Below, piece by piece: positions 7,706-52,046 of a DNA stretch of 53,673 nucleotides (position 1 is the first letter of the stretch; each line of letters opens with the position of its first letter). Under the pieces are notes generated by a model. The model did no database searches. It was not told where the DNA came from and was given only the letters and a program-made list of their open reading frames with translations. Source of the DNA: Escherichia phage mEp515; sequence record PP180003; one strand, 5' to 3'. Both the position numbers and the translations under genes were made by a program.

Positions 7706-7738
7706 AATGTTAATCCCTCCAGTCAACAAAATGTATAC

Positions 7739-8482
7739 CTACTTACACGCGAAAAGTTCAGACACCCAAAGTTGACCCTTAGCAGTAAATAGTGATTGGA
7801 CGTAACCTTCAGTCGAACATTTTACCACTCCATAGCCTTTGTCTACGAACCACTGTTTGAACATACGCCCGCCTCGCTTAATTCGCGTATCGTACACGTC
7901 AACCTGTTCAAGTTTTTTGTTGAGTTGCGTAGCAGTCATACCCAAAGGCTTGGCAACCTGTGTAGCGTTGCGATGCTGTTCGTTTTTTGCAATAGCATTA
8001 TAAACAGCCGCTTTCGGTGCTAATTCCTTATTTTCCAGCGCCAGACGATCAACTTCTTTCTGTGCTAATAGTTTTTGCTCTACCTCATCAGCCCATGCGC
8101 GAGCCGCCGCCACCGGATCAGTGAAATCCGGCAAAGCTGGTCTAAAACCGTAATGTCCATTTTCACGCAAAGCAGGGAGAACATCCTCGCACACCCAATC
8201 CTGGAAGCGCTCAGCTAATTCTACTTTTGATCGCATCACCAGACGGTAAACATCTGATTCATGAATTAGCGTTACGCCTTGCGGAATTGGTTCAAAACCC
8301 AAACGCCCCATTTCAGGGCATTTAATTTTAATCAATGACTTACAGTGTTCCCTTATAGCGTTTTGCGGCTTTGCGTACCCAAGCGCCCGCGCCACATCCA
8401 TTGCAACAAAAGCAGGTTTACCATCATAAATTACAGCAGTGATTTTATTGTCATCAAAATTAAAGCACATCAACTCAGACAT
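7739..8482 (-). CDS. Phage antirepressor (Bro-N domain plus KilA-C-like domain)
   Basis: N-terminus MSELMCFNFDDNKITAVIYDGKPAFVAMDVARALGY is Bro-N-like; start at internal ATG 8482 with GGAG SD. Confidence 0.7.
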   Translation of the reverse strand: MSELMCFNFDDNKITAVIYDGKPAFVAMDVARALGYAKPQNAIREHCKSLIKIKCPEMGRLGFEPIPQGVTLIHESDVYRLVMRSKVELAERFQDWVCEDVLPALRENGHYGFRPALPDFTDPVAAARAWADEVEQKLLAQKEVDRLALENKELAPKAAVYNAIAKNEQHRNATQVAKPLGMTATQLNKKLEQVDVYDTRIKRGGRMFKQWFVDKGYGVVKCSTEGYVQSLFTAKGQLWVSELFACK

Positions 8483-8613
8483 TGTAATTTCTCCGTAAAA
8501 CGCTCTACAACGCAAAAATCCCACCGCGTAACACGTTTGCACATGTTGCAGTGTCTTATTGCGCCAGAGGCGCTATCAGGTGGCTAATTTTTATTTACAG
8601 ACTGGTAGGTAGG

Positions 8614-8715
8614 TTATGGATTGACAAGAAGGAACAAACCGCCGAACAACGCTACGTTAACAGCGATTGCCGCAGCGATAGCAAATGCCAGGGCGAAAAC
8701 GTGTTTACCGTCCAT
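8614..8715 (-). CDS. Small hydrophobic peptide (33 aa, MDGKHVFALAFAIAAAIAVNVALFGGLFLLVNP)
   Basis: Single predicted TM helix; AGAGGA SD; preceded by the same 22-nt element found upstream of the antirepressor. Confidence 0.3.
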   Translation of the reverse strand: MDGKHVFALAFAIAAAIAVNVALFGGLFLLVNP

Positions 8716-8848
8716 TTTAAAATCCTCTCTAAAACGCTCTATAACGAGCTAAATAGCTAAAGGTATGCAAGTGTAGCACCCAATGCTTTTTAGCTCGCTG
8801 GTGAGCTTGTTTTGCGGGTAATTTTGTGTTTTTGCGGATCGTGGTTGG

Positions 8849-9904
8849 TCAAAGAGCGCCACATCGTGTATCACGTAGCGTTTTTGGTTTAAGCAGGAAA
8901 TCAAGTGTCGCTGTGAAGCCATTGCCGAAGTAAAAATCTGAAGCCGTGTTTTTGAACGCTTCAAAGTAGGCAACAAAGCCGTTGATGCTTTTGTCTTTCA
9001 GGTAGTCAGTGAACGCATAAATCTTGCGTTCAAGATCCCGATCAAGTTCGGCATGTGGCAACAGGCCATCAAACGCGCTGTTAAATGCCTCCACTACGTC
9101 GGCAGCGTTTGCAGTGGCTGACAGATTGCGCCATTTTTCAGCATCAGCCAGATACCCATCGAATTTAGTTACCCGGCAAATGTTAATAGGCTTAGGTGTT
9201 CCGCCACGGCTACGCCATTGCGTTAAAGCCCACTCAATCACTAATGTGATCTCATCCTCCGTATATGCTTTACGTGTTTTTGTTTCTGTCAGTAGTTCAA
9301 TGAATGGCTTGGTATCACGACATTTGCATCCAGCCTTGTCGTTGTAGAATGCCAGACAACGCAATGCAGCTTCGTTCACACCATCATGACTGACTGTTTT
9401 TTGTTCACTTTCGACAATACACGTAGTGTATATATCTTTTTCTCTTTCTTCTTCTTCTAATTCTAATTCTAATTCATGACCCTTTCTTGACCCGGTCATG
9501 ACCCTATCATGACCTTTTTGTGTTGGATTGATTAATTTTTCTAATTTTAATTGTTCCTTCGCTGTGTTTATGGCGGCCCTGTACGCGCTTTTAGAAGTCA
9601 TTGATTGGTCCAGCCTTTTCAATAACTTTAAACAAGTTATGTGGCCTTGAGAACATTCAAACAAACCAATTTCGATGAAGTATTTCATCATTTCTTCTAT
9701 GCGTTTTTCAGTAGATCCGACGTTTCTCGCAATGATTCTCGCGTCATGTCGTAGGTCGAATGTTAGATTGTGCTGATCCACGTCATAAGTTATCAGTTCT
9801 AGGCAATACCAATAAAGCCCGTAACCTTCCAGGCCATAATCTAACAAAACGTTTTGAAGTTTTTCATCGCGGTTAGCATCGCTATCGTGCTTGAACCACT
9901 TCAT
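8849..9904 (-). CDS. Replisome organizer / replication initiation protein (DUF4373-like N-terminus)
   Basis: 351 aa; N-terminus MKWFKHDSDANRDEKLQ typical of phage replisome organizers; central acidic linker; contains iteron-like repeats; GGAGG SD. Confidence 0.5.
   Translation of the reverse strand: MKWFKHDSDANRDEKLQNVLLDYGLEGYGLYWYCLELITYDVDQHNLTFDLRHDARIIARNVGSTEKRIEEMMKYFIEIGLFECSQGHITCLKLLKRLDQSMTSKSAYRAAINTAKEQLKLEKLINPTQKGHDRVMTGSRKGHELELELEEEEREKDIYTTCIVESEQKTVSHDGVNEAALRCLAFYNDKAGCKCRDTKPFIELLTETKTRKAYTEDEITLVIEWALTQWRSRGGTPKPINICRVTKFDGYLADAEKWRNLSATANAADVVEAFNSAFDGLLPHAELDRDLERKIYAFTDYLKDKSINGFVAYFEAFKNTASDFYFGNGFTATLDFLLKPKTLRDTRCGAL
9474..9514. repeat. Iteron-like direct repeats: four copies of TCATGACC(C) at 10-12 bp spacing, flanked by AT-rich tracts (candidate ori)
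   Basis: Copies at 9474, 9486 (one mismatch), 9496, 9507; adjacent (TTCTAA)3 and AT-rich 9515-9560; located inside the initiator gene as in lambda ori. Confidence 0.4.
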
Positions 9905-9907
9905 AGA

Positions 9908-10162
9908 TCATTCCTCCGGCAATGCAATATCATAAATTTCGCCGTATTCGTCAGCGCGTTTAATGAATCCTTTGCGGATTAATGAGTTTAATGCGTCAAC
10001 AGTAGTATGCAGTGGCAGTTCGCACACTTTTGCGATCTCTTCGCGTGAAGTGTGTGCGCGGCCTTTGTTGTCTGCCTTTTCTGCAATCGCCATTAAGACA
10101 AGTTTTTGAATCGGGCTGTTAAGTTTTACGCTCCATGCTTTGCTAATTATGTTCATGCTCAT
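9908..10162 (-). CDS. Small HTH DNA-binding protein (HTH_36-like), first gene of leftward early operon
   Basis: 84 aa from ATG 10162 (AGGAG SD); LVLMAIAEKADNKGRAHTSREEIAKVCELPLHTTVDALNSLIRKGFI; alternative start at 10276 lacks SD. Confidence 0.5.
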   Translation of the reverse strand: MSMNIISKAWSVKLNSPIQKLVLMAIAEKADNKGRAHTSREEIAKVCELPLHTTVDALNSLIRKGFIKRADEYGEIYDIALPEE

Positions 10163-10467
10163 CGTGTTTTCTCCTATGGTTAGAGTGAACGCGCGGGCGG
10201 GTATCCCATTAGCATTAGATAGCAGTGACTGACCGCTCAACAGATCCCGCCATTGCGTGATATTTGTTTTTCGCATCGCAGCGACACCGGGTTTTTAAAG
10301 AGCTTAAGGCGTCGGCCTTTTTGTGCTTTCCCTTATCTTTTTCCTTGCGTCATTGCAAGTATGGCTTTACCTTGTCAGCAAGTTTACAGAATGGCGCTAA
10401 CAGGTCAAGGCTTGAAAAACACGTTTTGTGACTTGCATCAAACTTTTTTAGGTTATAGGGTAGCGAC
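10163..10467. promoter_or_regulatory. Immunity-region intergenic switch: divergent promoters/operators between cI-like repressor and leftward early operon
   Basis: 305-bp non-coding interval between divergent genes; TTGCAAG-type half-sites; candidate -35 TGACTT at 10429-10434. Confidence 0.4.
10272..10303 (-). promoter_or_regulatory. nutR-like element (boxA-like GCTCTTTAAAAA plus short hairpin) on leftward transcript
   Basis: Minus-strand reading AGCTCTTTAAAAACCCGGTGTCGCTGCGATGCG; 26/33 identical to plus-strand copy at 19470-19502. Confidence 0.3.
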
Positions 10468-11115
10468 ATGAAAACAAAATGGTATGACTTAGCAAAGCAG
10501 CTCATGCGGGCGCAGGGCATGAGTCAGGATTCATTGGCTGATCTCATGGGGATAACCAAAGGTGGCCTTTCGCACTGGCTGAACGGTCGCCGTGAGCCAA
10601 ATCTTGAAGATATTGCGCGGATCATGCGGGCGCTTGGGCGTCGGCAGTTTACTGTCACACATGACGGGATGGTTATCGATGATTCTGTTTCTAACACGTT
10701 ACCGGGAGCGCCACCGCGTGATTTAGGCAGTTACCCGGTTGTTGACTGGAAGGATGTAGCAAACAATATGGAAGGCACATGCCGATCAACATTGCCACAC
10801 ATTACTACTAGCGTTATTTGTTCGGATGATAGTTATTGGCTGGTTGCTAAAGGTGAATCAATGAACGCACCGCAGGGGTTAAGCATCCCGGCGGGGACTA
10901 TGATACTCGTTGACCCGCACGCGCCAGCTATTGACGGAAAACTTGTTATAGCACAACTGGAGGAAGGGCAGATACCTACGTTTAAACAGTTGATTATTGA
11001 TGGAGGCCGAAAACTTTTGCGTTCACTGAATCCGTTGTATCCGCCGATCCCTATGAATCCAGAATCAAAAATCATAGGCGTGGTGGTTGATGCGAAGATC
11101 GTAAACCTGCCATAA
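10468..11115 (+). CDS. cI-like repressor (HTH_XRE N-terminus, S24 LexA-like autopeptidase C-terminus)
   Basis: 215 aa; HTH MSQDSLADLMGITKGGLSHWLNGRREP; C-terminal GESM serine motif and downstream Lys. Confidence 0.8.
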   Translation: MKTKWYDLAKQLMRAQGMSQDSLADLMGITKGGLSHWLNGRREPNLEDIARIMRALGRRQFTVTHDGMVIDDSVSNTLPGAPPRDLGSYPVVDWKDVANNMEGTCRSTLPHITTSVICSDDSYWLVAKGESMNAPQGLSIPAGTMILVDPHAPAIDGKLVIAQLEEGQIPTFKQLIIDGGRKLLRSLNPLYPPIPMNPESKIIGVVVDAKIVNLP

Positions 11116-11120
11116 ACACT

Positions 11121-11146
11121 AGCCGCCGGATGGCGGCTTTTCTTTG
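11121..11146 (+). terminator. Rho-independent terminator after repressor gene
   Basis: AGCCGCC-GGAT-GGCGGCT hairpin followed by TTTCTTTG. Confidence 0.7.
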
Positions 11147-11238
11147 TCTGAAAAAACACCAAAACGTAAACAGAAAACGCTATTTATTGTTTAAATATCA
11201 ATAGCATATAAAATATTTTAAAAAAGTATACAAAATGG

Positions 11239-11267
11239 ATTGACTCGGTGTTTTACGGGGCGTATAT
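11239..11267 (+). promoter_or_regulatory. Strong sigma70-type promoter (pL-like) for rightward early operon
   Basis: -35 TTGACT (11239-11244), 17-bp spacer, -10 TATATT (11262-11267); TACAAAATGG motif abuts the -35. Confidence 0.6.
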
Positions 11268-11522
11268 TGCGAATCAAAGGAAGGGCGTAGGTAACAAAAG
11301 CAGCTTCCTGGCACTTTAAAAATCAGGCTTAACACCTTGTCAACCGTGGAGTAACTCCCCGATGGGGGACCGAAAGCGGCACTGATAACAAGGCGCATGG
11401 GGTGTTTAAAGCGTTACATCCCCCACGAAACCGCACGCAGGGCGACGAGTCAGCTTGCTTGGAGTGAGCAAGGTCACGCCGGGAACGGCGATGATTGCGG
11501 GATTAGTTGAAAGATGTTAAGC

Positions 11523-11560
11523 CGCTCATTAAAAATCTGGTCAGCCGCTGGAAGTGCGGC
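11523..11560 (+). promoter_or_regulatory. nutL-like site: boxA-like CGCTCATTAAAAA plus boxB-like hairpin GCCGC-TGGAAGT-GCGGC
   Basis: boxA differs by one base from lambda boxA CGCTCTTAAAAA (from memory); hairpin 9 nt downstream; sits between promoter and N-like gene. Confidence 0.4.
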
Positions 11561-11617
11561 AATTAACGAAGATGATTTTTTTATTAAGTATCATCAAGGA
11601 TATACGGAGATCAGATC

Positions 11618-11908
11618 ATGACAGTTACAATCATGTATGGCAAATGTGACAGTAAACTGAATGCCAGGGAACGCAGAAGAATAAAAAGAGAAAACGAAAG
11701 AAAATCATCACCTGCAATTAATAAAACGGACAATGTGGATAAAGCCATTCGCTTTGCAAACGAGGAAAGATGCAAACCCAATGGCATTAAAGAACGTCGC
11801 AAAGGAGCGGTAAAATGGTATACGGAAAATGAAAGCGGCAACTACTACCACGCAACGCAACCACGCCAGTTAGGGGAAAAACCCCTTGATAAAGTCCGCT
11901 ACCATTAA
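11618..11908 (+). CDS. N-like transcription antiterminator candidate (arginine-rich motif protein)
   Basis: 96 aa; N-terminal ARM NARERRRIKRENERK resembles lambda/P22 N RNA-binding motifs; first gene after pL-like promoter and nut-like site. Confidence 0.45.
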   Translation: MTVTIMYGKCDSKLNARERRRIKRENERKSSPAINKTDNVDKAIRFANEERCKPNGIKERRKGAVKWYTENESGNYYHATQPRQLGEKPLDKVRYH

Positions 11909-11938
11909 TACAAAATGTAAATAATCGGAGGTGACATT

Positions 11939-12061
11939 ATGGTTATCGAGGCGCTCAAATTCAAACTTGCGGTAGCGGAAATGCTTCATGATGCCGAAAT
12001 GTGGAGCGCCGCGAATAAAGCCTTATACGTAGTGTTAACAGCGAAGGAGATCAAAGAGTGA
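11939..12061 (+). CDS. Hypothetical small protein (40 aa)
   Basis: GGAGGTG SD; stop overlaps GTG start of erf. Confidence 0.3.
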   Translation: MVIEALKFKLAVAEMLHDAEMWSAANKALYVVLTAKEIKE

Positions 12062-13109: not shown

Positions 13110-13138
13110 CGAATATAATCAATTAGTTAGGTGTTATT

Positions 13139-13928: not shown

Positions 13929-13942
13929 TGAGGTATTAAATC

Positions 13943-14277: not shown

Positions 14278-14285
14278 GGTTAATC

Positions 14286-15181: not shown

Positions 15182-15194
15182 AAGGATAAATATC

Positions 15195-15815: not shown

Positions 15816-15820
15816 CATCG

Positions 15821-15880
15821 TGATTGCGATCACATAAATATACATTTTGTGTTGTGATCGCATATCCGTTTTGTAAACTG
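15821..15880. promoter_or_regulatory. Intergenic inverted repeat TGCGATCACA / TGTGATCGCA flanking a TACATTTTGT motif (candidate operator or internal promoter)
   Basis: 10-bp arms separated by about 18 bp containing TATACATTTTGT; lies upstream of ORF 15915. Confidence 0.35.
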
Positions 15881-15914
15881 AAATCAAAAGGTTTACGGCA
15901 CGGAGGAAAACAAG

Positions 15915-16619: not shown

Positions 16620-16620
16620 A

Positions 16621-19373: not shown

Positions 19374-19470
19374 AATTTACAAAATGGCGTCATTGCGTGA
19401 TATGGATCACATAATGGCGCTTTTCACCTTGTTATGACGTATCCATTTTGTATACTTCAAACAAGCAAAA

Positions 19471-19503
19471 TGCTCTTTAAAAATCCGGCAGCGCTGAAAT
19501 GCG
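19471..19503 (+). promoter_or_regulatory. Second plus-strand nut-like element (boxA-like GCTCTTTAAAAA plus hairpin GCGC-TGAAAT-GCGT)
   Basis: 26/33 identical to the minus-strand element at 10272-10304; hairpin start resembles P22 boxB GCGCUGA (from memory). Confidence 0.3.
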
Positions 19504-28239: not shown

Positions 28240-29610
28240 ATGCCATCCAATTTAGAATTGGCGGTTAATGCTGCCTTGTCTCAACGCCAGGCGGCATATG
28301 CCCGCTATGCCGCAGCCAACCCATTCACTATGGGGATAGATGCCAAACGAGATACTGCGTGGAGTGAATACGGATTCAAAGAAGAGATCACGTATGACGA
28401 TTTATACAAACTGTATCGTCGCGGCGGTATAGCTCACGGTGCTGTGGAAAAGATTGTTACAACTTGCTGGCGCACCATGCCGACGCTGATAGAAGGTACT
28501 AAAGACGAGAAAGCCGAAAAGGAAACACCCTGGGAAAGAGAAATAAAGAAACAATTCGACAACAGATTTTGGCGCGTCATTGCCGAATGCGATCGCCGAC
28601 GCCTCATTGGTCGTTATGCTGGCCTGTTGATTCACGTCAGAGATAACCAGCCGTGGGATCAGCCAGTAACAAAAGGCGTTGGCATTGCCAAATTTACCCC
28701 GGCATGGGCTGGTGCACTAACGCCGAAGGAGTTCGAAGAAGACCCGGATAATGAAAATTATGGCCTGCCGACGTGGTGGGAATACAAAGAACGCATTAAC
28801 AGTAAGACCATTGCCAGAAGAATCCACCCTGATCGCATATTCATATTTGGTGACTATTCTGATGATGCCATCGCCTTCCTTGAGCCGTCCTATAACGCCT
28901 TTGTGTCACTGGAAAAAGTGGAAGGTGGTAGTGGTGAATCATTCCTGAAAAACGCTGCCCGTCAGCTTGCTATCTCATTCGATAAAGAGATCGACTTCCG
29001 GTCACTGGCAGCCACATACGGATGCGACGTCACAGAGCTGCGCGAGAAATTCAACGAGGCAGCGGCTGAAATGAATAAGGGTAATGATGTGATGATGGCA
29101 TTACAAGGTGCAACAGTAAGCCCGCTGGTGACTGCCGTATCTGACCCGTCAGCAACCTATGATGTCAACCTGCAAACCGCAGCCGCTGGTATTGATATTC
29201 CAACCCGCATCCTGGTTGGGAACCAGCAGGGCGAACGCGCATCAACCGAAGACCTCCGCTACTTCAACAGCCGCTGTATGACCCGCAGGGAGGAAATCGG
29301 CGGCGAGCTTGAGGATTTATTCCGCAAGATGGCAGATCTCCGCCTTATCAGTATGCCAATTGACGTATCAGTAATATGGGACGACCTGAACGCCATGACC
29401 AAAGCCGAACTACTGGAAGCGGCACACAAAATGGCGCAAATCAATCAGGCTTGCCTGGCTACTGGTGAAGAAATATTTAGCGGTGACGAGATCCGAGAGG
29501 CTGCCGGATACGATGGCCCTGCCAGTGTAGTAGAAATGGAAGAGGAAAACGATGATGAAGGTGAAGAAGATAATCAGGCGAATACCTCCAGCCGCGATAA
29601 TGCCATCTAA
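28240..29610 (+). CDS. Portal protein
   Basis: About 456 aa; position after terminase; acidic C-terminal tail; start at second ATG with AGGAG SD (first ATG 28219 lacks SD). Confidence 0.8.
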   Translation: MPSNLELAVNAALSQRQAAYARYAAANPFTMGIDAKRDTAWSEYGFKEEITYDDLYKLYRRGGIAHGAVEKIVTTCWRTMPTLIEGTKDEKAEKETPWEREIKKQFDNRFWRVIAECDRRRLIGRYAGLLIHVRDNQPWDQPVTKGVGIAKFTPAWAGALTPKEFEEDPDNENYGLPTWWEYKERINSKTIARRIHPDRIFIFGDYSDDAIAFLEPSYNAFVSLEKVEGGSGESFLKNAARQLAISFDKEIDFRSLAATYGCDVTELREKFNEAAAEMNKGNDVMMALQGATVSPLVTAVSDPSATYDVNLQTAAAGIDIPTRILVGNQQGERASTEDLRYFNSRCMTRREEIGGELEDLFRKMADLRLISMPIDVSVIWDDLNAMTKAELLEAAHKMAQINQACLATGEEIFSGDEIREAAGYDGPASVVEMEEENDDEGEEDNQANTSSRDNAI

Positions 29611-36869: not shown

Positions 36870-37229
36870 TTAGTTGAAATACGCATCAACTCTGTGGGCC
36901 ACGTTTACACCATAAGACTCGCCATCCTTAAACGCATTTAGTGACGCTTTATTATTTTTTGCCGCCTCTTTTAATCCATTGTACTTGCTATTAAGATCTT
37001 TCCATTCAGCGGTTTTTTCTAATACTGGCTTCATTGCGTAATGAATACAGCCAACGTTAAATGGCATTTCCAGATCACCATTACCGTCACCATGCTTTAT
37101 ATCGTACAACTGAGCATTATGCGCACATTCACGAAGTATGTATTTTGCAGACGGAGAGTGCTCAGCATTAGCATTAAGCGCAACCCCTGCAAGTACCGCC
37201 ACGATTAAGATTTTTGCCAGACTTTTCAT
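36870..37229 (-). CDS. Secreted/periplasmic protein of unknown function (opposite-strand moron in tail operon)
   Basis: 119 aa; signal peptide MKSLAKILIVAVLAGVALNANA with AxA cleavage site; two Cys in mature part; minus-strand terminator hairpin at 36837-36856. Confidence 0.6.
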   Translation of the reverse strand: MKSLAKILIVAVLAGVALNANAEHSPSAKYILRECAHNAQLYDIKHGDGNGDLEMPFNVGCIHYAMKPVLEKTAEWKDLNSKYNGLKEAAKNNKASLNAFKDGESYGVNVAHRVDAYFN

Positions 37230-37241
37230 ATTTCACCCCGC

Positions 37242-37331
37242 TTAGTTTTTGTTTTTCAGTGCTTTTAACATTTCTTCGATGAAGTCAGCATAGCGCTCAT
37301 GTTCGCTGGGGTGGTAGTTTACGTTTTTCAT
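37242..37331 (-). CDS. Small ORF (29 aa) upstream of secreted moron
   Basis: AAGAGGA SD; MKNVNYHPSEHERYADFIEEMLKALKNKN. Confidence 0.3.
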   Translation of the reverse strand: MKNVNYHPSEHERYADFIEEMLKALKNKN

Positions 37332-37488
37332 TTTCTTATCCTCTTTTGCTTCCTCCGGTCAATCCGGTCTTTTAAATCCCTTTGCTCTATCCCTTTCCTT
37401 TATCTTCTTTATACAAAATGTACTCGTTGAAGTGAAGCCATTTTGTATAAAATAGAGACATAGATCACATTTTGTATGAGGTTAAATC
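37332..37488. promoter_or_regulatory. Divergent regulatory region with three TACAAAATGTA-family motifs and TAGATCACA
   Basis: Motif copies at 37412-37422 (perfect palindrome), 37439-37449, 37468-37477. Confidence 0.4.
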
Positions 37489-40648: not shown

Positions 40649-40680
40649 AACCCCGGCGCAATGCCGGGGTTATTTTTATT
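40649..40680 (+). terminator. Rho-independent terminator after tape measure gene
   Basis: AACCCCGGC-GCAAT-GCCGGGGTT hairpin plus ATTTTTATT; near-identical stem to terminator at 33798. Confidence 0.75.
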
Positions 40681-40855
40681 CAATTTCATCATTTTTAAAT
40701 TCGCCGTTTGCATAAAGCTGTAATGCTCTTATCAGTTCGTCAGCTTGCTTTTTGTCTATTACAATCATCTCGCAGTCGCTAACGATCCATAATCTTCCGT
40801 CATCTTCAATACTAAGATCAATCCTTCTACATTCTTCAGTATCATGAATAATCAT
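40676..40855 (-). CDS. Small ORF (59 aa, acidic)
   Basis: Not in ORF track; weak SD. Confidence 0.25.
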   Translation of the reverse strand: MIIHDTEECRRIDLSIEDDGRLWIVSDCEMIVIDKKQADELIRALQLYANGEFKNDEIE

Positions 40856-40893
40856 TATAAACCTTCATCATGTTATTGATTTCGTGAATAAAT

Positions 40894-41064
40894 TTACTCA
40901 AATCTTGTATATCCTCTCTCAATTTTCCCTCCGTGTACACTTCTGGCAAATACCGCGTCAGTATACCTAAAAAATGGGCATGTATATGTATCCCCTTTAC
41001 TATCCATATATTTTAGCACCCATGCTATGCGTTTTACGTTGCTTTTATTTGCCGGATTTTTCAT
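40894..41064 (-). CDS. Hypothetical small protein (56 aa)
   Basis: Internal ATG with GGAGG SD. Confidence 0.35.
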   Translation of the reverse strand: MKNPANKSNVKRIAWVLKYMDSKGDTYTCPFFRYTDAVFARSVHGGKIERGYTRFE

Positions 41065-41327
41065 TTTATTTTTCCTCCGCAAATCACAACCTGCCGTTTC
41101 TTGCTATGTAGCTGCGAGCAAACATCACCTGCCAGATGTTCCAAATCTCACGCCACGTAAATTTATCATCTTCCATATCTCACCCCGTCGCGCTTGTATG
41201 GTTCGCCATCAGCAAACGGGATTAACTCATCGTTTGCCACCATTCGATTAAACCAGTCTTTAAGAATAACCAGGGAGAACCGGATCCCGTAACTGTGCAA
41301 TTCGCGCCACCTCATTTATGTGCCACC

Positions 41328-41834
41328 CTATTTACCGTGATTTGGATGAAAACCGTATTTAATTTCGGCTTCTTGCCTTGCCTTGATTGCATCATCTTTG
41401 CTTTTGAATACCCCTAAATGTTTTAATTTTCCGTTGATTCTGATAACTGCGCACCATTTACGCAATCTTTCAAGCCAATAAACACCAGCACAGCCGGATT
41501 TATTATTATGGTTGCGACTTCTGTTGTGGTTATTGTCTTTGCAGGTAACTAGCCGCAAATTTTCTATATGGTTGTTTACCTTATTGTGATCGATATGATC
41601 TATTTCCATTCCTTCCGGGATTGGTCCGTTGTGCATTTCCCATATAATTCTATGCTCTTGGTATATCCTCCTGTTAAACCCTACATGTATATACCCACTT
41701 CGTTTATGAAGGCACCCGGCTCGCTTTCCCGCATATCTTGAATTCCAGGTTTTGGAAACGCCATTTCTTGGCTTCCATAATATAGCGCCGTCACTGTATA
41801 TAAAATAATCATTCCAGTTAATTACTTGTGACAT
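41328..41834 (-). CDS. HNH homing endonuclease with AP2-like domain (copy 3 of 4)
   Basis: HRIIWEMHNGPIPEGMEIDHIDHNKVNNHIENLRLVTCKDNN plus AP2-like C-terminus. Confidence 0.8.
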   Translation of the reverse strand: MSQVINWNDYFIYSDGAILWKPRNGVSKTWNSRYAGKRAGCLHKRSGYIHVGFNRRIYQEHRIIWEMHNGPIPEGMEIDHIDHNKVNNHIENLRLVTCKDNNHNRSRNHNNKSGCAGVYWLERLRKWCAVIRINGKLKHLGVFKSKDDAIKARQEAEIKYGFHPNHGK

Positions 41835-42076
41835 CCGCGCACCCCTGACAATTCATTAAATTTGTGATGCTCGACGATTACCCATGCTTTCAAGTCCTGG
41901 CTATAAACACGCCAATCTAAATTGGCGCGGAAGGCGTAGCCGTAGCCGTCCTTTAATTTTTTGGGTGCAACATCCTTGTTTAAAAACGCGTTCAGAAGTG
42001 CTTTTGCTTTTTTGATTACGTGTCCAGGTGCGTTTTTCTGTGCTTTCAGGTTTTTACCAATCGCCACCAATTTCAT
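41822..42076 (-). CDS. Hypothetical basic protein (84 aa)
   Basis: Lys-rich; start MKLVAIGKNLK. Confidence 0.45.
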   Translation of the reverse strand: MKLVAIGKNLKAQKNAPGHVIKKAKALLNAFLNKDVAPKKLKDGYGYAFRANLDWRVYSQDLKAWVIVEHHKFNELSGVRGCHK

Positions 42077-42093
42077 AACACACCCCACAATCC

Positions 42094-42249
42094 ATTAGCT
42101 GACCACTTTCAGGAAGAAATCACGGTACTCATTTTCCTTCGCATTCATCATGAATTGACCGTATTTGAATGCGTCATCAAAGCCTTTAACTATCGCCACT
42201 TCCACCTGTTCGAATGCGTTGTTCAGCATTACCACTACATAACGCTTCA
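42094..42249 (-). CDS. Hypothetical small protein (51 aa)
   Basis: Not in ORF track; AAGGGGG SD. Confidence 0.35.
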
Positions 42250-42419
42250 TGTTGGCCCCCTTTGTCGGTACTGCTTTTTCTTCTTGCTTACTATATACAT
42301 CTTGTCACGCCTTATGTGAAGCCATTTTGTAAACTGGTTATAATTCTTGTGATGAATTTCTCATTTTTCGCGTAGAAGCGCGTAAAGATGTATGCAATAT
42401 GTAACTTATAGGGGGAATC

Positions 42420-42773
42420 ATGCCAGAAGTTTTCAGATGGACGCCGCAAAGAAGCTACAGCGTGACCAGGGAACCAAATGTGTCTGTCATTAAACTTGGT
42501 GATGGGTATGAACAGCGCCAGGCGAAAGGGATTAACACATTGCTTGACAGCTACACCCTGGTCTTTAAAGGCAGTAGCGCAGGATGCGGTGATGGTGGGA
42601 ACGTGGCGATCCAGGCAGAAGCATTCTTGAGGGCGCGCGGCGCTGTCGATGCTTTCTACTGGACGCCTTCGATGGATGGGGTGCAAAGGCTTTTCGTTTG
42701 CCGTAGCTGGAGCATGACCAAAGACGGGCCTGTGTACACGCTAAACGCAACGTTTGAACAAGTTGTTGGCTAA
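42420..42773 (+). CDS. Minor tail protein M (lambda gpM-like)
   Basis: 117 aa; FRWTP...GDGYEQRQ...FYWTP...ATFEQVVG matches lambda gpM landmarks as I recall them. Confidence 0.85.
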   Translation: MPEVFRWTPQRSYSVTREPNVSVIKLGDGYEQRQAKGINTLLDSYTLVFKGSSAGCGDGGNVAIQAEAFLRARGAVDAFYWTPSMDGVQRLFVCRSWSMTKDGPVYTLNATFEQVVG

Positions 42774-42970: not shown

Positions 42971-42974
42971 TAAC

Positions 42975-43000
42975 AACCCCGCTTCGCGCGGGGTTTTCTT
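42975..43000 (+). terminator. Rho-independent terminator
   Basis: AACCCCGC-TTCGC-GCGGGGTT hairpin plus TTTCTT. Confidence 0.7.
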
Positions 43001-43001
43001 G

Positions 43002-43139
43002 TCAGTAGTTAATGTGCATCAAACTCATTGGGTGAGCGTGCGCCATGTTGTTTGCTATTGCCGCCCAGTCCCAACCAGCAGCGTGAACACCAAATACGAT
43101 CAAGCCCATTATTATTAGCGCCAAAACTTCTATTTTCAT
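43002..43139 (-). CDS. Small membrane peptide (45 aa)
   Basis: AGGTGA SD; MKIEVLALIIMGLIVFGVHAAG TM segment. Confidence 0.3.
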   Translation of the reverse strand: MKIEVLALIIMGLIVFGVHAAGWDWAAIANNMAHAHPMSLMHINY

Positions 43140-43149
43140 AATCTGTCAC

Positions 43150-43398
43150 CTATAAGTTATCACGCAGATAATTAACGCCCTTATCAGTAACGAATGAATG
43201 GTTGACCTGGTTTTCATCCGTCATGATGATGAATAACTTTTCCTGTAGGTATTTCGCTTTCGGGTACAGTGTTAAACAGACCTGGTACAGTATCCCGCGC
43301 TCAATCAGCAAATGAATAAATTCGTGTTCATGATAACCGATAAGGCGGGCGGCCTGTTTCAACGTGTACACATAATCCCCGTGATTACGCCGCGCCAT
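43150..43398 (-). CDS. Small HTH DNA-binding protein (82 aa)
   Basis: HTH-like YTLKQAARLIGYHEHEFIHLLIERGIL. Confidence 0.5.
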   Translation of the reverse strand: MARRNHGDYVYTLKQAARLIGYHEHEFIHLLIERGILYQVCLTLYPKAKYLQEKLFIIMTDENQVNHSFVTDKGVNYLRDNL

Positions 43399-43407
43399 AC
43401 TCCCACC

Positions 43408-43758
43408 CTATTTATTGAACGCAGACAAATTGTCGATACAGAAATCTTTAGCCGCTTTTTCGTATTCACGTTTTGCTTCAGGATCGTCAGCCGGGAAACC
43501 TTTTGCGTGTATTTCGCCAGGGCAAGACTGATCCATAGAATCAGCAAATTCAACATTGACGTTAAAGTTAATATCTTTCGGGTTCATCTCTTCCACCTTA
43601 TCCGGTACTTGGACCGGAGTAATATCAAAATCACGATAGTTAAACCCACAGCGAAGTAATTCACGACCTTCATCACGCGCCGCAGCATATGTGTCAAATA
43701 GGCCCATGCGTTCCCATCCGCATTTATTGGTAAACACGTCTAAACTGTATTTTTGCAT
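43408..43758 (-). CDS. Hypothetical protein (116 aa)
   Basis: ORF; no motif recognised. Confidence 0.5.
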   Translation of the reverse strand: MQKYSLDVFTNKCGWERMGLFDTYAAARDEGRELLRCGFNYRDFDITPVQVPDKVEEMNPKDINFNVNVEFADSMDQSCPGEIHAKGFPADDPEAKREYEKAAKDFCIDNLSAFNK

Positions 43759-43770
43759 TTTGTTAACCTC

Positions 43771-43926
43771 TCATTTGACGGGTTCGATCTCGTACCCCAA
43801 AACGCGTTCGTCTTCAGCAAGTAAAAGCGCGTCAACCAGCGCATCGCCTTCATCTTTATACAGGGCCACAAGCATTTCCCTGCCATCAGCCAGGAACACC
43901 GTCAACCTCCACACCTTATCATCCAT
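43771..43926 (-). CDS. Small acidic protein (51 aa)
   Basis: Internal ATG with strong GGAGGTG SD; first gene of minus-strand island. Confidence 0.4.
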   Translation of the reverse strand: MDDKVWRLTVFLADGREMLVALYKDEGDALVDALLLAEDERVLGYEIEPVK

Positions 43927-44053
43927 CGCACACCTCCGCGCCATTTTGTTAACCCTGCTTCCTTTTGAGTACAATATACATATTGTAAAAAGCGCTATCA
44001 ACCGTTTTGGTATGATTTAGCGTGACGTAGATCACAAATTGCAAGGTGATAAA

Positions 44054-44758: not shown

Positions 44759-44760
44759 TT

Positions 44761-45965: not shown

Positions 45966-45977
45966 TAGGGGGTTACA

Positions 45978-49500: not shown

Positions 49501-50718
49501 GTTATTGCTGAAGAGAAAAAGGCAACGGCTGAATCACTGGAAACCATCACGGCAGAAATGAACACGATGGATTCTAACCTTAAAGGTCAGATCTCAAGCG
49601 TGGAACGCGCAGTGGCTGACGAGGCCAGCGCACGCGCAGAAGCCATTAACGGTGTGAACGCATCAATAAGCAATCTAGACAAGAAAACAGACGCCAGCAT
49701 CAATAGACTTGATCAAGCTATTGCAGACGAAACGAACGCCCGCACACAGGCAGTCAGTGACGTTAACGCGAGTATCTCATCGCTAGACAAGAAAACTGAC
49801 GCCAGCGTTAAACGCTTGGATCAAGCAATTGCAGACGAAACCAGTGCAAGAACTGAAGCTATCAGCGGCGTGAACGCATCAATTTCCACTCTTGATAGCA
49901 AGGTAACAAGCAATGTAACGCGCATAGATAAGGCTATTGCAGACGAAACGAAGGCACGCACTGACGCGATAAGTAGCCTTAATTCATCGCTTACCAGTAC
50001 GATTAATTCGAAAGTGTCTGAAGTATCAACGGCACTTTCTACGCATGAAGCATCAAGCGCTGAAAAATTTAGCCAGATCTCTGCGTCTTTCGAATCTGTA
50101 AACTCAAGTATTACAGAATGGTCACAATCTATGGCAACGGCTGACGAGGCATTGTCAACCAAAATTGATCAGTTAACAGTAACCGTTAACGGTAACAAAA
50201 CGGCGATCGAGACGACATCGAATGCGCTAACCGATTTCAAGGGTAACGTTGATGCGTCATATTCAATCAAGCTCGCCACCGATAACAACGGCATGAAGTA
50301 CGCGACAGGTATGTCGCTTGGCCTGACTGGTAACGGCACAAACTTTCAATCGCAGTGTATTTTCCTCGTTGACCGCTTCGTGTTAATGACCTCAGCAAAC
50401 GGCACATATACAACACCTTTCTATGTCACCAATGGTGCGATGTATGTGAAAGAAGCGTTTATTAAAGACGGATCGATCGATACTGCAAAAATAGCGCAGC
50501 AAATCCAGTCAACTGTATTTGTTCAAGACTCAAAAGGTTGGATGATTAACAAAGATGGATGGGCGCAATTCAACGAAGTTACTGTAAGGGGTAACGTCAT
50601 TGTTAAAGGCAATCAAAATTTCGATGTACGCAATAGTGACGGACGGGTAATTATTAACAATAATGGCATTACAGTAAATCTTCCTAGTGGTGGTAAAATT
50701 ATTATCGGTGTTTGGTAA
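46537..50718 (+). CDS. Host specificity / central tail fibre protein J (lambda gpJ-like)
   Basis: 1393 aa; conserved gpJ N-terminal two-thirds; C-terminal region with tandem coiled-coil repeats and a distinct distal domain. Confidence 0.9.
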   Translation: MSSGGGKAKTPTLLNDNLFHKQFYRVLDILSEGPIFGVVNQTAPLNSVMLNDTPITDASGNTSVPGVSLAWRNGTADQSPINGFNAIESTVIVNAKVTHDTPIIRTISDPNVNRVRLNLGVDSLVRSDDKGNQYNTSVMLMVDVKPSSSSTWSLVKDITIGPGKQSGEYLEAHIINAPDEKPFDIRVRRVTPDSTGDLLHNDTRWSSYSEIIDDNLSYPHTAVAGAVIDHDQYTDTPTRTYHLRGLIVDVPDNYDPETRTYSGLWLGGFKKAYTNNPAWLFRYLVKNERFGLARHAGYIDVDDGALYTLSQYCDQLVSDGYGGFEPRMTLNAYITEQMSARDLLDNIAGMFRGIALWDGQRLTVMIDAPQDPIATITNANVVDGAFTRSSIARAESYNAVIVSWTDPENGWEQSKEYVADDELIARDGYNETTLEAFGCTSRGQAYRAGKWLIETAKREPSKFTFKMARDAIHFTPGDIIEILDNNRAGARLGGRIVANSGKVITVDKVDSEYIAAGDTISLLDSDGKFKKHQITGVNGNNITLATAPAWIRNGTVFAVSTEAAKPVLCRIISVAETENNSVYTIEAAQHDPHKQAVVDEGAIFEVNNDTLNHFRVPNIENLKVLNVGSETVQCRATWETQTTTHRLTFEIRVYNAEGRVVAAYETTNYRYDFYGLDAGSYTLGIRGRNDTGMKGAESIVDLVIGAPAAPIGVNWVPGVFQATVYPISKTTLTTDTAYEFYFSGENQITDPSKVTTLAQFTGRGYQWTFGGMNTGHTYYVYVRTRNAFGVSDFVESSGKPTENFDEISDYVTKDVINSEQFKGMISDIKDLGDRADLIESATNDLKTATDNLKTATDNLTNITDDLMVDTDNLTNITDELRTDTDGLITETGAIKADTDTLKKQTEDLYKKVGENADDIGQHEARIDSLEVSSEKVGSELAQAKASLQNASLALINNSLAQTNTRVTLTAQYKKGRTETKAEIDRIDNVIAEEKKATAESLETITAEMNTMDSNLKGQISSVERAVADEASARAEAINGVNASISNLDKKTDASINRLDQAIADETNARTQAVSDVNASISSLDKKTDASVKRLDQAIADETSARTEAISGVNASISTLDSKVTSNVTRIDKAIADETKARTDAISSLNSSLTSTINSKVSEVSTALSTHEASSAEKFSQISASFESVNSSITEWSQSMATADEALSTKIDQLTVTVNGNKTAIETTSNALTDFKGNVDASYSIKLATDNNGMKYATGMSLGLTGNGTNFQSQCIFLVDRFVLMTSANGTYTTPFYVTNGAMYVKEAFIKDGSIDTAKIAQQIQSTVFVQDSKGWMINKDGWAQFNEVTVRGNVIVKGNQNFDVRNSDGRVIINNNGITVNLPSGGKIIIGVW
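49654..49977 (+). repeat. Three in-frame 108-bp tandem repeats within J (36-aa units VNASIS.LDKKTDAS..RLDQAIADET.ART.A)
   Basis: Repeat units begin at 49654, 49762 and 49870; shorter DNLTNITD repeats upstream around 49100-49170. Confidence 0.55.
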
Positions 50719-50758
50719 CCACTGTTGCCCCGCCAAATGGTTGGGGCAACTAATTTTA

Positions 50759-51703
50759 TTAATAAATTACTGGCAAATAAGGAAGATTCATACCTATACA
50801 GAAATCCGGCCTGTTACCTATTTCATACCTGACAATCCTTGATCCTGTTCCGCTTTTCACCTGCCCGTTGTACATCATAATGCCTTTGTATCTTAGTTCC
50901 TTGTATGCTGATATAGCTCTAGTATTAAAGCCGCATCTCAATATTGGGAAGAACGCGTCACCTATTGTCTGGTAACTATTCGATAACGCTATAAATCCCT
51001 TAACAACCAATGGCCTTTGTTTTGTTGAAAACACGCATTGATTATTTTTATTAATGATGGTTATTCCGTCGCCAGGTGATGGCGGTGATTTGCTAAAAAT
51101 AGCCAAATTCATCGTTACCGATCCATATGTGTCACCAGTTGCAGAAGTGTTTGTGTTTGTACAGATCAATTTATTGTTTCCGTCAAACTCAACTGAAACA
51201 CCGCTATTGCTCCAGTTACCGAAAGGAACACCGGCAACTGGCATAGTGTAAGAACCATTAAAGCTAACACTCCCAACCCATAAACATGACATCAATGTAT
51301 CGTTAGTCGTTATCGATGCAAAATCTGTGCTATCTGCAACTAATATACCCTCACCAGTAGACGCCTTTGCTATCTCAAACACGCTACCGCTAAAATTAGT
51401 GATCCTATCAGAATATGCGTTCTCACCACTAATTGAAATCCTTGCCGTGCCACCAGAAGCACTAAAGCCTGATATAAAATATGTTTCAACACCCCTGTCA
51501 AGCTCAAACGCGTAAGCGCCTACCTTTGGGATTAGAAACTTATCGCCGCCAGTTAAATCCTTTATGGAAAAACTTTGCGAAAACCCAGCATTTTGAATAT
51601 TGAAATCTCCAGCGTGTGAGAACGCACGCAACCCGCTTGTTATTTCCATTGCAGGGCGTCCGTCATTCAGCCCAATATATATACCCGCCCCCATTAGTAC
51701 CAC
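50759..51703 (-). CDS. Hypothetical beta-rich protein (314 aa), opposite strand between J and side tail fibre
   Basis: Ser/Thr/Gly/Asn-rich; no signal peptide recognised; start overlaps upstream lipoprotein gene. Confidence 0.5.
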   Translation of the reverse strand: MVLMGAGIYIGLNDGRPAMEITSGLRAFSHAGDFNIQNAGFSQSFSIKDLTGGDKFLIPKVGAYAFELDRGVETYFISGFSASGGTARISISGENAYSDRITNFSGSVFEIAKASTGEGILVADSTDFASITTNDTLMSCLWVGSVSFNGSYTMPVAGVPFGNWSNSGVSVEFDGNNKLICTNTNTSATGDTYGSVTMNLAIFSKSPPSPGDGITIINKNNQCVFSTKQRPLVVKGFIALSNSYQTIGDAFFPILRCGFNTRAISAYKELRYKGIMMYNGQVKSGTGSRIVRYEIGNRPDFCIGMNLPYLPVIY

Positions 51704-51912
51704 TCCTTACTTCCGCAATCTCTAGTCTTGCCACTATGACCATCAGTGCCATCATAAACGCGACAGATCTCACCGGACGGAACCTTAGCCCCGTCAACCC
51801 ATCTTTCATAGCAGACACCGTATGCGCTAGTTGCACAATGGCCGTTGTGTCGATTAGTGTCAGCGCAACCAACCAGAATAGCCGCAACAGCGATAATTGT
51901 TACCATTTTCAT
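51694..51912 (-). CDS. Small Cys-rich lipoprotein (candidate Llp/Cor-like superinfection-exclusion lipoprotein)
   Basis: 72 aa from MKMVTIIAVAAILVGC (lipobox LVGC); six further Cys; GGGGTG SD; adjacent to receptor-binding genes. Confidence 0.5.
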   Translation of the reverse strand: MKMVTIIAVAAILVGCADTNRHNGHCATSAYGVCYERWVDGAKVPSGEICRVYDGTDGHSGKTRDCGSKEWY

Positions 51913-52046
51913 TAGTACACCCCACTCAGATTGTGTGTATTTGTTGCTTTGTTTATTATAATATACATTTTGTATAAGCATAAAATGCAACATAGATCAC
52001 AAAATGGTAGAATTATTCCGTTAATTAACATAATGGAGTCATTGCG

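Follow-up and report, generated by a model that had tools for sequence, protein, structure and literature searches.

Escherichia phage mEp515 (sequence record PP180003) raises the question of what reads the short motif TACA-AAA-TGTA, which recurs throughout the non-coding DNA of the stretch analysed here, a window of 53,673 nucleotides. On both strands of the whole window, the core ACAAAATG/CATTTTGT is matched 20 times against 4.5 expected. Fourteen copies fall in the 5,123 non-coding bases, which make up 9.5% of the window by gene calls made in this analysis and in which 0.46 copies are expected (Poisson P ~1e-16); four lie wholly within the 48.5 kb of coding DNA. The observation made in the initial annotation is upheld. 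ACAAAATG is also the top-enriched 8-mer in the non-coding DNA of the window. The enrichment check against shuffled sequence proposed earlier gave a clear answer, as TACAAAATGTA at one mismatch or fewer has 11 matches against 1.6 expected, a number reached in 0 of 100 shuffles. Start-codon contexts account for the coding matches at 10474, 33840 and 43756. The copies already listed are placed correctly to within 1-3 bases (7725, 11229, 11909, 15841, 19378, 19442, 37412, 37437, 37466, 42321, 43940, 51964 and 51998), and additional sites occur at 6067, 10385, 10420, 11254, 15865, 42296, 42393 and 43977. In all, about 25 putative operator copies occupy 11 intergenic regions, with about 20 of them in nine regions away from rep, the gene for the prophage's CI-like repressor.

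The description of the site as a palindrome is half right. TACA/TGTA half-sites flank an AT-rich centre, but the symmetry is only partial, the right half being TGG in about half of the copies, which have two or three mismatches to the dyad. The dyad form is aATACR-W3-YGTATt, and both orientations are found within one operon. The window consensus, TATACAAAATGTATA, fits the phage L/epsilon34-type consensus WTACRAWWTGTAT. The AAAAT centre is near-invariant in dispersed copies, stricter than the family logo demands, which could reflect recent common descent or a second requirement. The asymmetric core discriminated better than a symmetric half-site matrix trained on the window, partly because some training halves of that matrix were mis-registered. 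The earlier wording 'upstream of many operons' is inexact, since several copies are internal to operons and immediately precede a ribosome-binding site. A function at the RNA level was rejected because copies within one operon can point either way with respect to transcription. Start codons of small ORFs were likewise rejected for the intergenic copies, which lack a ribosome-binding site and run into immediate stops, as was a 434-like reading, ACAA-N6-TTGT, because its second half is not conserved. We know of no E. coli regulator with this consensus, and a full-text literature search for the motif string returned unrelated eukaryotic papers only.

We propose, with a probability of roughly three in four, that Rep, the lambda-CI-like repressor encoded by the prophage itself, has this motif as its operator. 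The immunity region holds the following features.

10468 to 11115, plus strand: Rep, CI-like prophage repressor, proposed binder of the motif
10385 to 10395, unstranded: putative operator TACAGAATGGC, centred at -16 of the leftward early promoter
10420 to 10430, unstranded: operator-like CACGTTTTGTG, at -51 of the leftward early promoter
11229 to 11239, unstranded: putative operator TACAAAATGGA, centred at -41 of the rightward early promoter and abutting its -35
11254 to 11264, unstranded: putative operator TACGGGGCGTA, centred at -16 of the rightward early promoter, 25 bp from the 11229 site

By Pfam, Rep has an N-terminal HTH_3 domain (5e-13) of the Cro/C1 type and a C-terminal, LexA-like Peptidase_S24 domain (1.7e-18), and its best PDB match is the lambda CI repressor. 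It is 100% identical to the cI product of phage mEp010 and 96% identical to Rep021 of mEp021, which confers immunity (PMC11893012), and is the sole protein in the window with the helix-turn-helix of this clade. The rep gene lies beside the early promoters, and the motif is the longest element common to both early promoter regions. The leftward early promoter is predicted as TTGACC-16-TAAACT (TSS ~10374, with nutL downstream); its two sites are 35 bp apart, and the one at 10420 is also at about -36 of a possible rightward rep promoter. The rightward early promoter is predicted as TTGACT-17-TATATT (11240-11268, TSS ~11275). The 10385 operator reads TACAAAATGG in MagusPhagus and the MS 21-1 prophage, and the half-sites at 11254 are kept in 22 distinct relatives with a variable centre. 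Over the immunity region, half-sites are kept in 15-22 distinct relatives, while centres and spacers vary.

The association with this repressor extends well beyond close relatives. A scan of viral contigs with a six-sequence alignment retrieved relatives of Rep; a search of GTDB representative genomes with Rep peptides returned no relative. Three dyads lie between the repressor gene and cro in 43/43 distinct IMG/VR phage loci whose CI-like repressor is 43-51% identical to Rep and has its recognition helix; in these loci dyad density is 18.3 per kb between cI and cro versus 0.95 per kb elsewhere. Three TACR-N3-YGTA dyads likewise separate cI from cro in KPP5665-2, ENT1, ST64T, Midgardsormr38 and Vibrio P2. 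The outgroup repressors are 40-51% identical to Rep and have in common the recognition helix T-K/Q-G-x-x-x-H-W-L-x-x-R-R, with H36, W37, L38 and R42 invariant in the repressor alignment. The outgroup logo is aATACRwwwYGTATt, and its operators are spaced by 25-26 and 32-34 bp, near the 24-37 bp of the pairs and triplets in the window; TACAAAATGGA is itself the middle operator in Klebsiella phages. In the complete genomes of ST64T, KPP5665-2 and Midgardsormr38, dyads are confined to the two operator regions flanking the repressor gene, apart from one or two isolated, chance-like copies each. The motif is best read as the Rep operator because all 43 repressor loci carry the dyads and because, in the three complete outgroup genomes, dyads are essentially confined to the immunity region. 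The c2 repressor of ST64T and phage L is 44% identical to Rep and nearly identical in its recognition helix; phage L/ST64T and epsilon34 have the same half-sites at the same spacing, and the leftward early promoter of ST64T carries a pair of perfect TACAAAATGTA copies at a distance of 25 bp. For a related repressor, the operator WTACRAWWTGTAT had been proposed independently in the paper on the epsilon34 genome (PMC2629481). By sequence, this places the candidate operator with those of the phage L/epsilon34-type CI repressors, Rep's own family.

Conservation in relatives, suggested earlier as a check, is also found, in that sites are kept in mEp021-type (mEpimmI) phages; mEp021, MagusPhagus and two E. 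coli prophages have them at orthologous positions. Half-site columns show 95% identity, versus 86.5% for other non-coding columns of the same regions, among 4-5 relatives (P = 1.4e-7), and outer half-sites are kept while the centre varies or flips. The regions on the early side of the genome are as follows.

6067 to 6077, unstranded: single putative operator TACAAAATGGA
7725 to 7735, unstranded: single putative operator AACAAAATGTA(TA)
11909 to 11919, unstranded: perfect putative operator TACAAAATGTA, following the N-like gene (11618-11908) and preceding the gene after it
15841 to 15875, unstranded: putative operator pair TACATTTTGTG (15841-15851) and TCCGTTTTGTA (15865-15875), 24 bp apart
19378 to 19452, unstranded: putative operator cluster TACAAAATGGC (19378), weak CACATAATGGC (19408) and TCCATTTTGTA (19442)

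Promoters were predicted with a weighted hexamer scan of intergenic regions only; a generic sigma-70 scan was uninformative (27 promoters found versus 28 expected). In early, late and accessory-gene regions alike, sites coincide in part with predicted -10/-35 elements, which, together with the retention of half-sites, fits the original suggestion of a dimeric regulator of early and late genes. The rightward early promoter and those predicted to start at 15886, 37401 and 42285 have operator centres at -16 and -40/-41. In the four pairs spaced by 24-25 bp, a TTGACA-like hexamer (at least 4/6) begins 1-2 nt past each -41 site, for which the chance is about 0.04 per site (binomial estimate). Only the two early promoters are near consensus, and most dispersed ones score modestly. 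The -10 resemblance of the latter comes partly from the operator half-site itself (TGTATA).

Singly placed operators lie close to start codons, with centres 25 nt upstream of that of the helicase gene (4632-6047, minus strand) for 6067, of the gene at 6575-7705 (minus strand) for 7725, and of the ATG of the gene after the N-like gene for 11909. At 7725, ACA....TGTATA is kept in five phages around a centre of AAAA, AATT, TTTT or GAAT. The 15841/15865 pair is at -40/-16 of a predicted plus-strand promoter, TTGTGA-16-TAAACT (TSS ~15886). The 19442 operator is at -16 of a predicted TTGTTA-16-TATACT (TSS ~19463) and just upstream of nutR2 boxA at 19472, the position of nutR2 being taken from PMC11893012. 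Further sites occur in the tail-gene cluster.

37412 to 37476, unstranded: putative operator cluster TACAAAATGTA (37412), GCCATTTTGTA (37437) and CACATTTTGTA (37466)
42296 to 42403, unstranded: putative operators TACATCTTGTC (42296), GCCATTTTGTA (42321) and weak TGCAATATGTA (42393)
43940 to 44043, unstranded: putative operators GCCATTTTGTT (43940), perfect TACATATTGTA (43977) and weak CACAAATTGCA (44033)
51964 to 52037, unstranded: putative operators TATACATTTTGTATA (core 51964-51974), CACAAAATGGT (51998) and AACATAATGGA (52027)

The operators at 37412 and 37437, 25 bp apart, are at -16/-41 of a leftward predicted promoter (TTCACT-17-TATAAA, TSS ~37401) and also at -43/-18 of a rightward predicted promoter before the tape-measure gene; the 37466 copy is not conserved in the relatives compared. 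Those at 42296 and 42321, again 25 bp apart, are at -16/-41 of a leftward predicted TTCACA-17-TATATA (TSS ~42285), and the 42321 operator also lies within the spacer of a rightward predicted TATAAT promoter. The weak 42393 operator precedes the tail gene at 42420. The 43977 operator is at -16 of a leftward predicted promoter, TTGATA-17-TATATT (TSS ~43966). The 51964-52037 operators, including the perfect 15-bp palindrome TATACATTTTGTATA, separate a leftward lipoprotein operon from a rightward tail-fibre gene, and promoters predicted on each strand overlap them. Further start sites in the tail-gene cluster are predicted near 37460, 42351, 51948-51953 and 52020.

Could something other than Rep account for these sites? 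One reading would have the motif be a promoter element read by RNA polymerase itself and serving, by orientation, as an A-rich proximal UP-like element abutting the -35 or as a -10 region of the TTTTG-TAWAMT type. Such a reading would suit the placement of ACAAAATGG 2 nt upstream of -35-like hexamers at 11240, 37436 and 42320, and that of CCATTTTG ahead of TATAAA, TAAACT or TATACT at several sites. However, the G is at -13, whereas an extended -10 has it at -14, and no convincing promoter is seen for five copies that immediately precede ribosome-binding sites. The three tandem dyads between cI and cro in all 43 outgroup loci, the lack of the dyad at other promoters of the outgroup genomes, and the variation of the centre around fixed half-sites also make this reading quite improbable. 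That the sites are conserved linkers or boundaries for recombination, or relics of a mobile promoter cassette, with regulation secondary, is less probable still. Homology with relatives does begin or end, at 6090, 7719-7737, 37391, 43943 and 51958-51960, within 2-26 bp of a site, and some copies have longer flanks in common (ACAAAATGGCTTCAC at 37439 and 42323; ACATAGATCACA at 37458 and 51990). Yet 10/57 block ends lie near operators versus 19.7% expected from other non-coding DNA (P = 0.71); the excess of block ends over all positions arises because junctions fall between genes.

A different binder, either a host global regulator or a phage protein, is unlikely, if somewhat less so. One candidate in the window, possibly a Cro analogue, is the product of the first leftward early gene (9908-10162), which is HTH_36/MarR-like by Pfam. 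Canonical Cro proteins bind the same operators as CI, and outgroup Cro proteins have a similar recognition helix, so that in principle one would expect these sites to have a second binder; the preference of another protein might also explain the strict AAAAT centre and the TGG variant. Against this, the CI-like repressor is the feature common to the window and every dyad-bearing outgroup, and the 9908-10162 protein is of a different fold and has no homologue beside the outgroup sites.

Rep is the preferred binder. A Rep dimer would read aATACR-W3-YGTATt through its Cro/C1-type helix-turn-helix, and a Cro analogue may use the same sites. Given the OR1/OR2-like placement at the rightward early promoter, bound Rep should block RNA polymerase there; at the early promoters this would maintain lysogeny. 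Rep binding, the sign of regulation and the promoters themselves are inferred, the link to the repressor by comparative association. The same operators in nine further regions suggest that this single repressor would silence about ten transcription units genome-wide. Three of these regions immediately precede early genes, two are at predicted internal promoters of the rightward early operon, and four are divergent promoter regions, where leftward accessory-gene islands meet rightward tail genes in the tail-gene cluster. At the divergent regions, one operator pair may serve as O1/O2 for one promoter and as O2/O1 for the opposite one. With the divergent promoter pairs under Rep, the antisense accessory islands (a ParE-like toxin, a KilAC fragment and an exclusion lipoprotein) and the tail genes behind them would come under direct immunity control. 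The full regulon, with about 25 operators, about ten units, the tail-cluster islands, probable CRP input and stoperator-like roadblocks within operons, is a tentative proposal to which we give a little short of even odds. A Rep-repressed exclusion lipoprotein operon would be unexpected, as that gene may well act in lysogens, and this counts against Rep as the binder. So do the strict AAAAT centre, the modest scores of most dispersed promoters and the poor right half, TGG rather than TGTA, of about half of the copies, although TACAAAATGGA serves as middle operator in the Klebsiella phages all the same.

In lambda PR, OR2 and OR1 are centred near -41 and -16, and the tandem operators of the window are likewise about 25 bp apart and near -16 and -41 of an early promoter. 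Other features recall lambda CI/PR, P22 c2 and 434. Rep has a Cro/C1-type helix-turn-helix and an S24 LexA-like domain, the operators are dyads with conserved half-sites and a tolerant centre, and the repressor gene is flanked by two early promoters, downstream of which come nut sites and an N-like antiterminator. In contrast to lambda, the window operator is shorter (about 11-15 bp, TACA-N3-TGTA), rep is co-directional with one early operon, and about 20 more operator copies are well away from the immunity region. The three tandem operators of the canonical switch were not found upstream of rep, where two sites are recognisable, and no XRE-type Cro is encoded opposite rep or anywhere in the window; both absences in the cI-proximal region count against the Rep reading.

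Dispersed operators set the window and its relatives apart from ST64T, KPP5665-2 and Midgardsormr38 as well. Immunity systems with dispersed operators include the P1 C1 operators, the gp71 stoperators of mycobacteriophage L5 and the conserved inverted repeats of Streptomyces phiC31; of these, P1 and L5 have asymmetric sites, and the stoperators work in a single orientation with respect to transcription. As in these phages, one immunity repressor (Rep, as proposed here) would serve more than ten sites in short intergenic regions, some of them within operons. The repressor families are unrelated, however, and unlike the P1 and L5 sites, that of the window is a dyad, which occurs in either orientation and, for the most part, in a lambda-like O1/O2 arrangement at predicted promoters. 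The system would be a new variant of one already known, the lambda-type repressor, with its operators unusually dispersed over the genome.

The mEpimmI phages have been reported to be as common as lambdoid phages in human gut E. coli, and the 2025 genome paper says of their repressor operators only that they are probably different from lambda's. New here are aATACR-W3-YGTATt as candidate operator and a map that places about 25 candidate sites. Should Rep indeed occupy the dispersed ones, a lambda-like model with two operator regions would not fit the mEpimmI group, and lysogenic silencing would be distributed over many promoters. The accessory islands of the tail operon would then be immunity-controlled units rather than free-running lysogenic-conversion genes, affecting the expression of prophage exclusion, toxin and antirepressor-like genes. 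Such a map would be of use for engineering mEpimmI phages and for reading prophage transcriptomes.

A companion element, TAGATCACA, had been noted near the motif and is indeed intergenic at 37461, 44028 and 51993; with coding copies at 6372 and 30722, it occurs five times in the window versus 0.34 expected. It is half of a separate CRP-like dyad, GTGA-N6-TCACA, and GTGA-N6-TCAC occurs seven times versus 0.45 expected.

15819 to 15834, unstranded: CRP-like dyad CGTGATTGCGATCACA, centre 59.5 bp upstream of predicted TSS 15886
19396 to 19411, unstranded: CRP-like dyad CGTGATATGGATCACA, centre 59.5 bp upstream of predicted TSS 19463
37454 to 37469, unstranded: half CRP-like site AGAGACATAGATCACA, containing TAGATCACA, centre 60.5 bp upstream of leftward TSS ~37401
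44021 to 44036, unstranded: CRP-like dyad CGTGACGTAGATCACA, containing TAGATCACA, centre 62.5 bp upstream of leftward TSS ~43966
51986 to 52001, unstranded: half CRP-like site TGCAACATAGATCACA, containing TAGATCACA

The CRP consensus is AAATGTGATCTAGATCACATTT, of which TAGATCACA is the right half, and the class I position is -61.5. Three full GTGA-N6-TCACA dyads, and centres 59.5-62.5 bp upstream of four predicted start sites, resemble class I arrangements, unlike the left halves at two window sites, which are weak. The binder of the CRP-like dyads could be a phage protein. Coupling of the motif to Dam methylation through an embedded GATC, as had been suggested, is not supported, since GATC adjoins only 4-5 of the roughly 25 sites and lies there within the CRP-like dyad. 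A Dam-methylation-sensitive site was rejected because GATC is not conserved with the operator dyads. For instance, GATC is lost at 37461 in mEp021, where the neighbouring dyads persist, and at the 19397 site in MagusPhagus, where TGTGA-N6-TCACA is kept.

The window represents a prophage from the mEp021/mEpimmI group of E. coli phages, with a tail region that shares 86-94% identity with mEp013, mEp021, mEp044, mEp010, mEp554 and MagusPhagus; the best match of its first 25 kb to a complete E. coli genome (90.6% identity) is located inside dgcM. Its relevant features are as follows.

186-1400: integrase gene
~10160 down to 1340: leftward early operon, with replication genes
start ~10374: leftward early promoter, TTGACC-16-TAAACT, with nutL downstream and candidate operators at -16 and -51
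10468-11115, plus strand: CI-like repressor gene (rep, encoding Rep)
11240-11268: rightward early promoter, near consensus, TTGACT-17-TATATT, start ~11275
from ~11275: rightward early operon (N-like gene, erf, ssb, methyltransferases, ninG, rusA, Q), followed in the layout by lysis, head and tail genes
36870-37336, 40676-42250, 43002-43926 and 50759-51912: four short leftward gene islands within the tail cluster
10292-10303 (minus strand), 11524-11535 and 19472-19483: boxA-like sequences GCTCTTTAAAAA and GCTCATTAAAAA
40649-40671 and 42975-42995: strong bidirectional intrinsic terminators of the AACCCCGG...CCGGGGTT type
11463-11478, 15819-15834, 19396-19411 and 44021-44036: non-coding full CRP-like dyads, GTGA-N6-TCAC(A)
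37454-37469 and 51986-52001: CRP-like half-sites

The repeated TACA-AAA-TGTA-type motif is a real and conserved feature. The initial annotation had placed it correctly to within 1-3 bases, and additional copies were found beyond those it listed. The motif is enriched: TACAAAATGTA, allowing at most one mismatch, has 11 matches in the window versus 1.6 expected, and the core ACAAAATG has 20 copies versus 4.5. By our own gene calls, consistent with how the relatives are annotated, non-coding DNA makes up 9.5% of the window and holds 14 of the 20 core copies (0.46 expected, P ~1e-16). ACAAAATG is the top enriched non-coding 8-mer, with GATCACA next, among 7-mers (7 versus 0.39). Conservation across related phages, a check the initial annotation had named, is also seen: mEp021, MagusPhagus and two E. 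coli prophages have copies at matching positions, and half-site columns are 95% identical, as compared to 86.5% for the remaining non-coding columns in those regions (P = 1.4e-7). The third copy before the tape-measure gene (37466-37476) survives intact in the window and MagusPhagus alone and has decayed in mEp021 and both E. coli prophages, so maintenance is not universal among copies. Two good matches fall in coding DNA and may be functional or chance: TACAAACTGTA (28405-28415) is in the portal gene and is shared by mEp021 and probably the MS 21-1 prophage, and TTATACAAAATG (2381-2388) belongs to a small early gene.

Aligned by its core, the motif has the consensus T-W-T-ACAAAATG-K-A. The full dyad form is TATACA-W3-TGTATA, of which a perfect copy lies at 51964; in about half of the copies TGG replaces TGT in one half, and the dispersed copies have a strict AAAAT centre. 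The most informative place is site 7725, which reads ACAAAATGTATA, ACAAATTGTATA, ACATTTTGTATA, ACGTTTTGTATA and ACAGAATGTATA in five phages: the outer ACA and TGTATA are fixed while the centre is altered or flipped. Such a pattern is the signature of a dyad site recognised by a dimer, as the initial annotation had proposed, with an AT-rich centre that would not be read base by base.

Several lines of comparison point to Rep as the protein concerned. The motif is the longest element common to both regulatory regions flanking rep. Rep has HTH_3 and Peptidase_S24 domains, its best solved relative is lambda CI, and it is 100% identical to cI of mEp010 and 96% identical to Rep021, the repressor of mEp021. 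Rep021 has been demonstrated to confer immunity, and its operators are not known (PMC11893012). In phages whose repressors are 40-51% identical to Rep, namely KPP5665-2 (Klebsiella), ENT1 (Enterobacter), ST64T (Salmonella, phage L immunity), Midgardsormr38 (Erwinia) and Vibrio phage P2, the short cI-cro intergenic region carries three TACR-N3-YGTA dyads each, with further dyads at the other early promoter. One KPP5665-2 site is exactly TACAAAATGGA, and ST64T has two copies of TACAAAATGTA at 25 bp spacing. The recognition helices are nearly alike (ITKGGLSHWLNGRR in Rep; ITQGGLGHWLNARR, ITKGAVSHWLNARR and KTQGAIGHWLNGRR in the outgroups). A scan of viral contigs extended this to 43 distinct outgroup loci, in each of which the 170 bp preceding the repressor gene contain three (rarely four) dyads, at 18.3 per kb versus 0.95 per kb elsewhere in the loci, with spacings of 25-26 and 32-34 bp and a symmetrised logo of aATACRwwwYGTATt. 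Rep alone in the window carries an HTH of this type, and outgroup Cro proteins used as queries match only Rep's own HTH there. In the epsilon34 genome paper, WTACRAWWTGTAT was proposed as the repressor operator, and the DNA-binding part of that repressor is related to phage L's (PMC2629481). On these comparisons, assignment of the motif to Rep as its putative binder is well supported. As far as comparison of sequences can tell, the best explanation of the motif is that it serves the prophage's CI-like repressor as operator and belongs to the phage L/epsilon34 operator family, a reading directly testable with existing reagents.

Were the motif purely a promoter element, the tandem cI-cro triplets in every outgroup would go unexplained, as would the copies directly before ribosome-binding sites. 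Binding by a different protein is a less likely possibility. A Cro analogue would even be expected to use these sites, but the one component that the window has in common with every outgroup is the repressor. The idea that the copies are recombination linkers failed a test of homology block ends, 10 of 57 of which fall near operators versus 19.7% expected from other non-coding DNA (P = 0.71), with no excess near operators.

Operator assignment to Rep is consistent with the geometry of the early promoters. At the rightward one, -41 is the centre of TACAAAATGGA and -16 that of TACGGGGCGTA, a spacing of 25 bp; in 22 distinct relatives the half-sites, -35 and -10 are conserved and the operator centre and remaining spacer vary. 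In lambda PR, OR2 lies at about -40 and OR1 at about -16, OR1 being strong and OR2 weaker. The window recalls this arrangement, its -41 sites being mostly the TGG variant and its -16 sites better dyads.

The remarkable point is the distribution of these candidate operators across the entire genome, with lambda-like O1/O2 geometry at predicted promoters. Whereas perfect dyads in ST64T, KPP5665-2 and Midgardsormr38 are found at the two operator regions adjoining the repressor gene, with one or two isolated, chance-like extras each, the window and its relatives have candidate operators in nine further intergenic regions. One extra, TACACAGTGTA in Midgardsormr38 (10812-10822), is found away from the immunity region, in the tail region, where two divergent Arc-family genes flank it and antirepressor genes are adjacent; it could be a chance match or a solitary dispersed operator. 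For each of the single copies at 6067, 7725 and 11909, the distance from the centre to the start codon downstream is exactly 25 nt. These three early-gene start regions (6040-6077 and 7700-7735, both minus strand, and 11909-11941) share the order operator, GGAGG, 5 to 8 nt, ACAT(T/A)ATG, and look like paralogous translation-start cassettes. The remaining six regions have pairs or triplets at 24-37 bp spacing, and an operator region stands at the upstream end of all four leftward islands.

Promoters in the dispersed regions were predicted by a weighted hexamer scan, with modest scores except for the two early promoters, and their -10 resemblance derives partly from the operator half-site itself. 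Operator centres fall at -16 and -40/-41 of predicted promoters 15886 (+), 37401 (-) and 42285 (-), and a centre lies between -16 and -18 at 19463 (+; the nutR2 boxA follows immediately, at 19472), 37460 (+), 43966 (-), 51953 (-) and 52020 (+). In each of the four pairs at 24-25 bp spacing, the -41 site is followed after 1-2 nt by a hexamer with at least 4/6 matches to TTGACA (TTGACT, TTGTGA, TTCACT, TTCACA), for which our binomial estimate of chance is ~0.04 per site; these are conserved or still -35-like in relatives. Two predicted divergent promoters would share the 37412/37437 pair, with the O1 and O2 roles exchanged between them. In lambda, a site at -41 can repress or activate; for individual sites here we infer that Rep may repress, activate or merely block elongation.

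The 9-mer TAGATCACA, the right half of the CRP consensus, would belong to a distinct upstream site, probably one for host CRP, at these putatively Rep-controlled promoters. GTGA-N6-TCAC occurs seven times in the window versus 0.45 expected, and the non-coding sites are conserved with variable spacers. CRP-like centres lie 59.5, 59.5, 60.5 and 62.5 bp upstream of predicted starts 15886, 19463, 37401 and 43966. These distances approximate the position of class I CRP sites, and the same starts bear candidate repressor operators. The suggestion that an embedded GATC couples the motif to Dam found no support: MagusPhagus has lost GATC at 19396 and reads TGTGATGAATGTCACA, so it is the dyad that is conserved.

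Both bidirectional terminators lie in gaps where rightward tail genes meet leftward island ends, so each tail sub-cluster and each island could be a separate transcription unit. Short hairpins follow the boxA-like sequences, whose positions agree with those reported for nutL, nutR1 and nutR2 of mEp021; nutR2 comes right after the predicted operator-controlled promoter starting at ~19463. The 13-mer CATTGCGTGATAT (10251, 19391) is common to the nutL and nutR2 regions, in opposite orientations relative to transcription. GTCATTGC has five copies (10349, 19389, 52038, 25839, 28576), four in non-coding DNA versus 0.16 expected. An HNH endonuclease gene (6082-6585) separates the helicase gene from its upstream neighbour in the window and mEp021 and is missing in three relatives; the homology junction there is 18 bp from the candidate operator at 6067.
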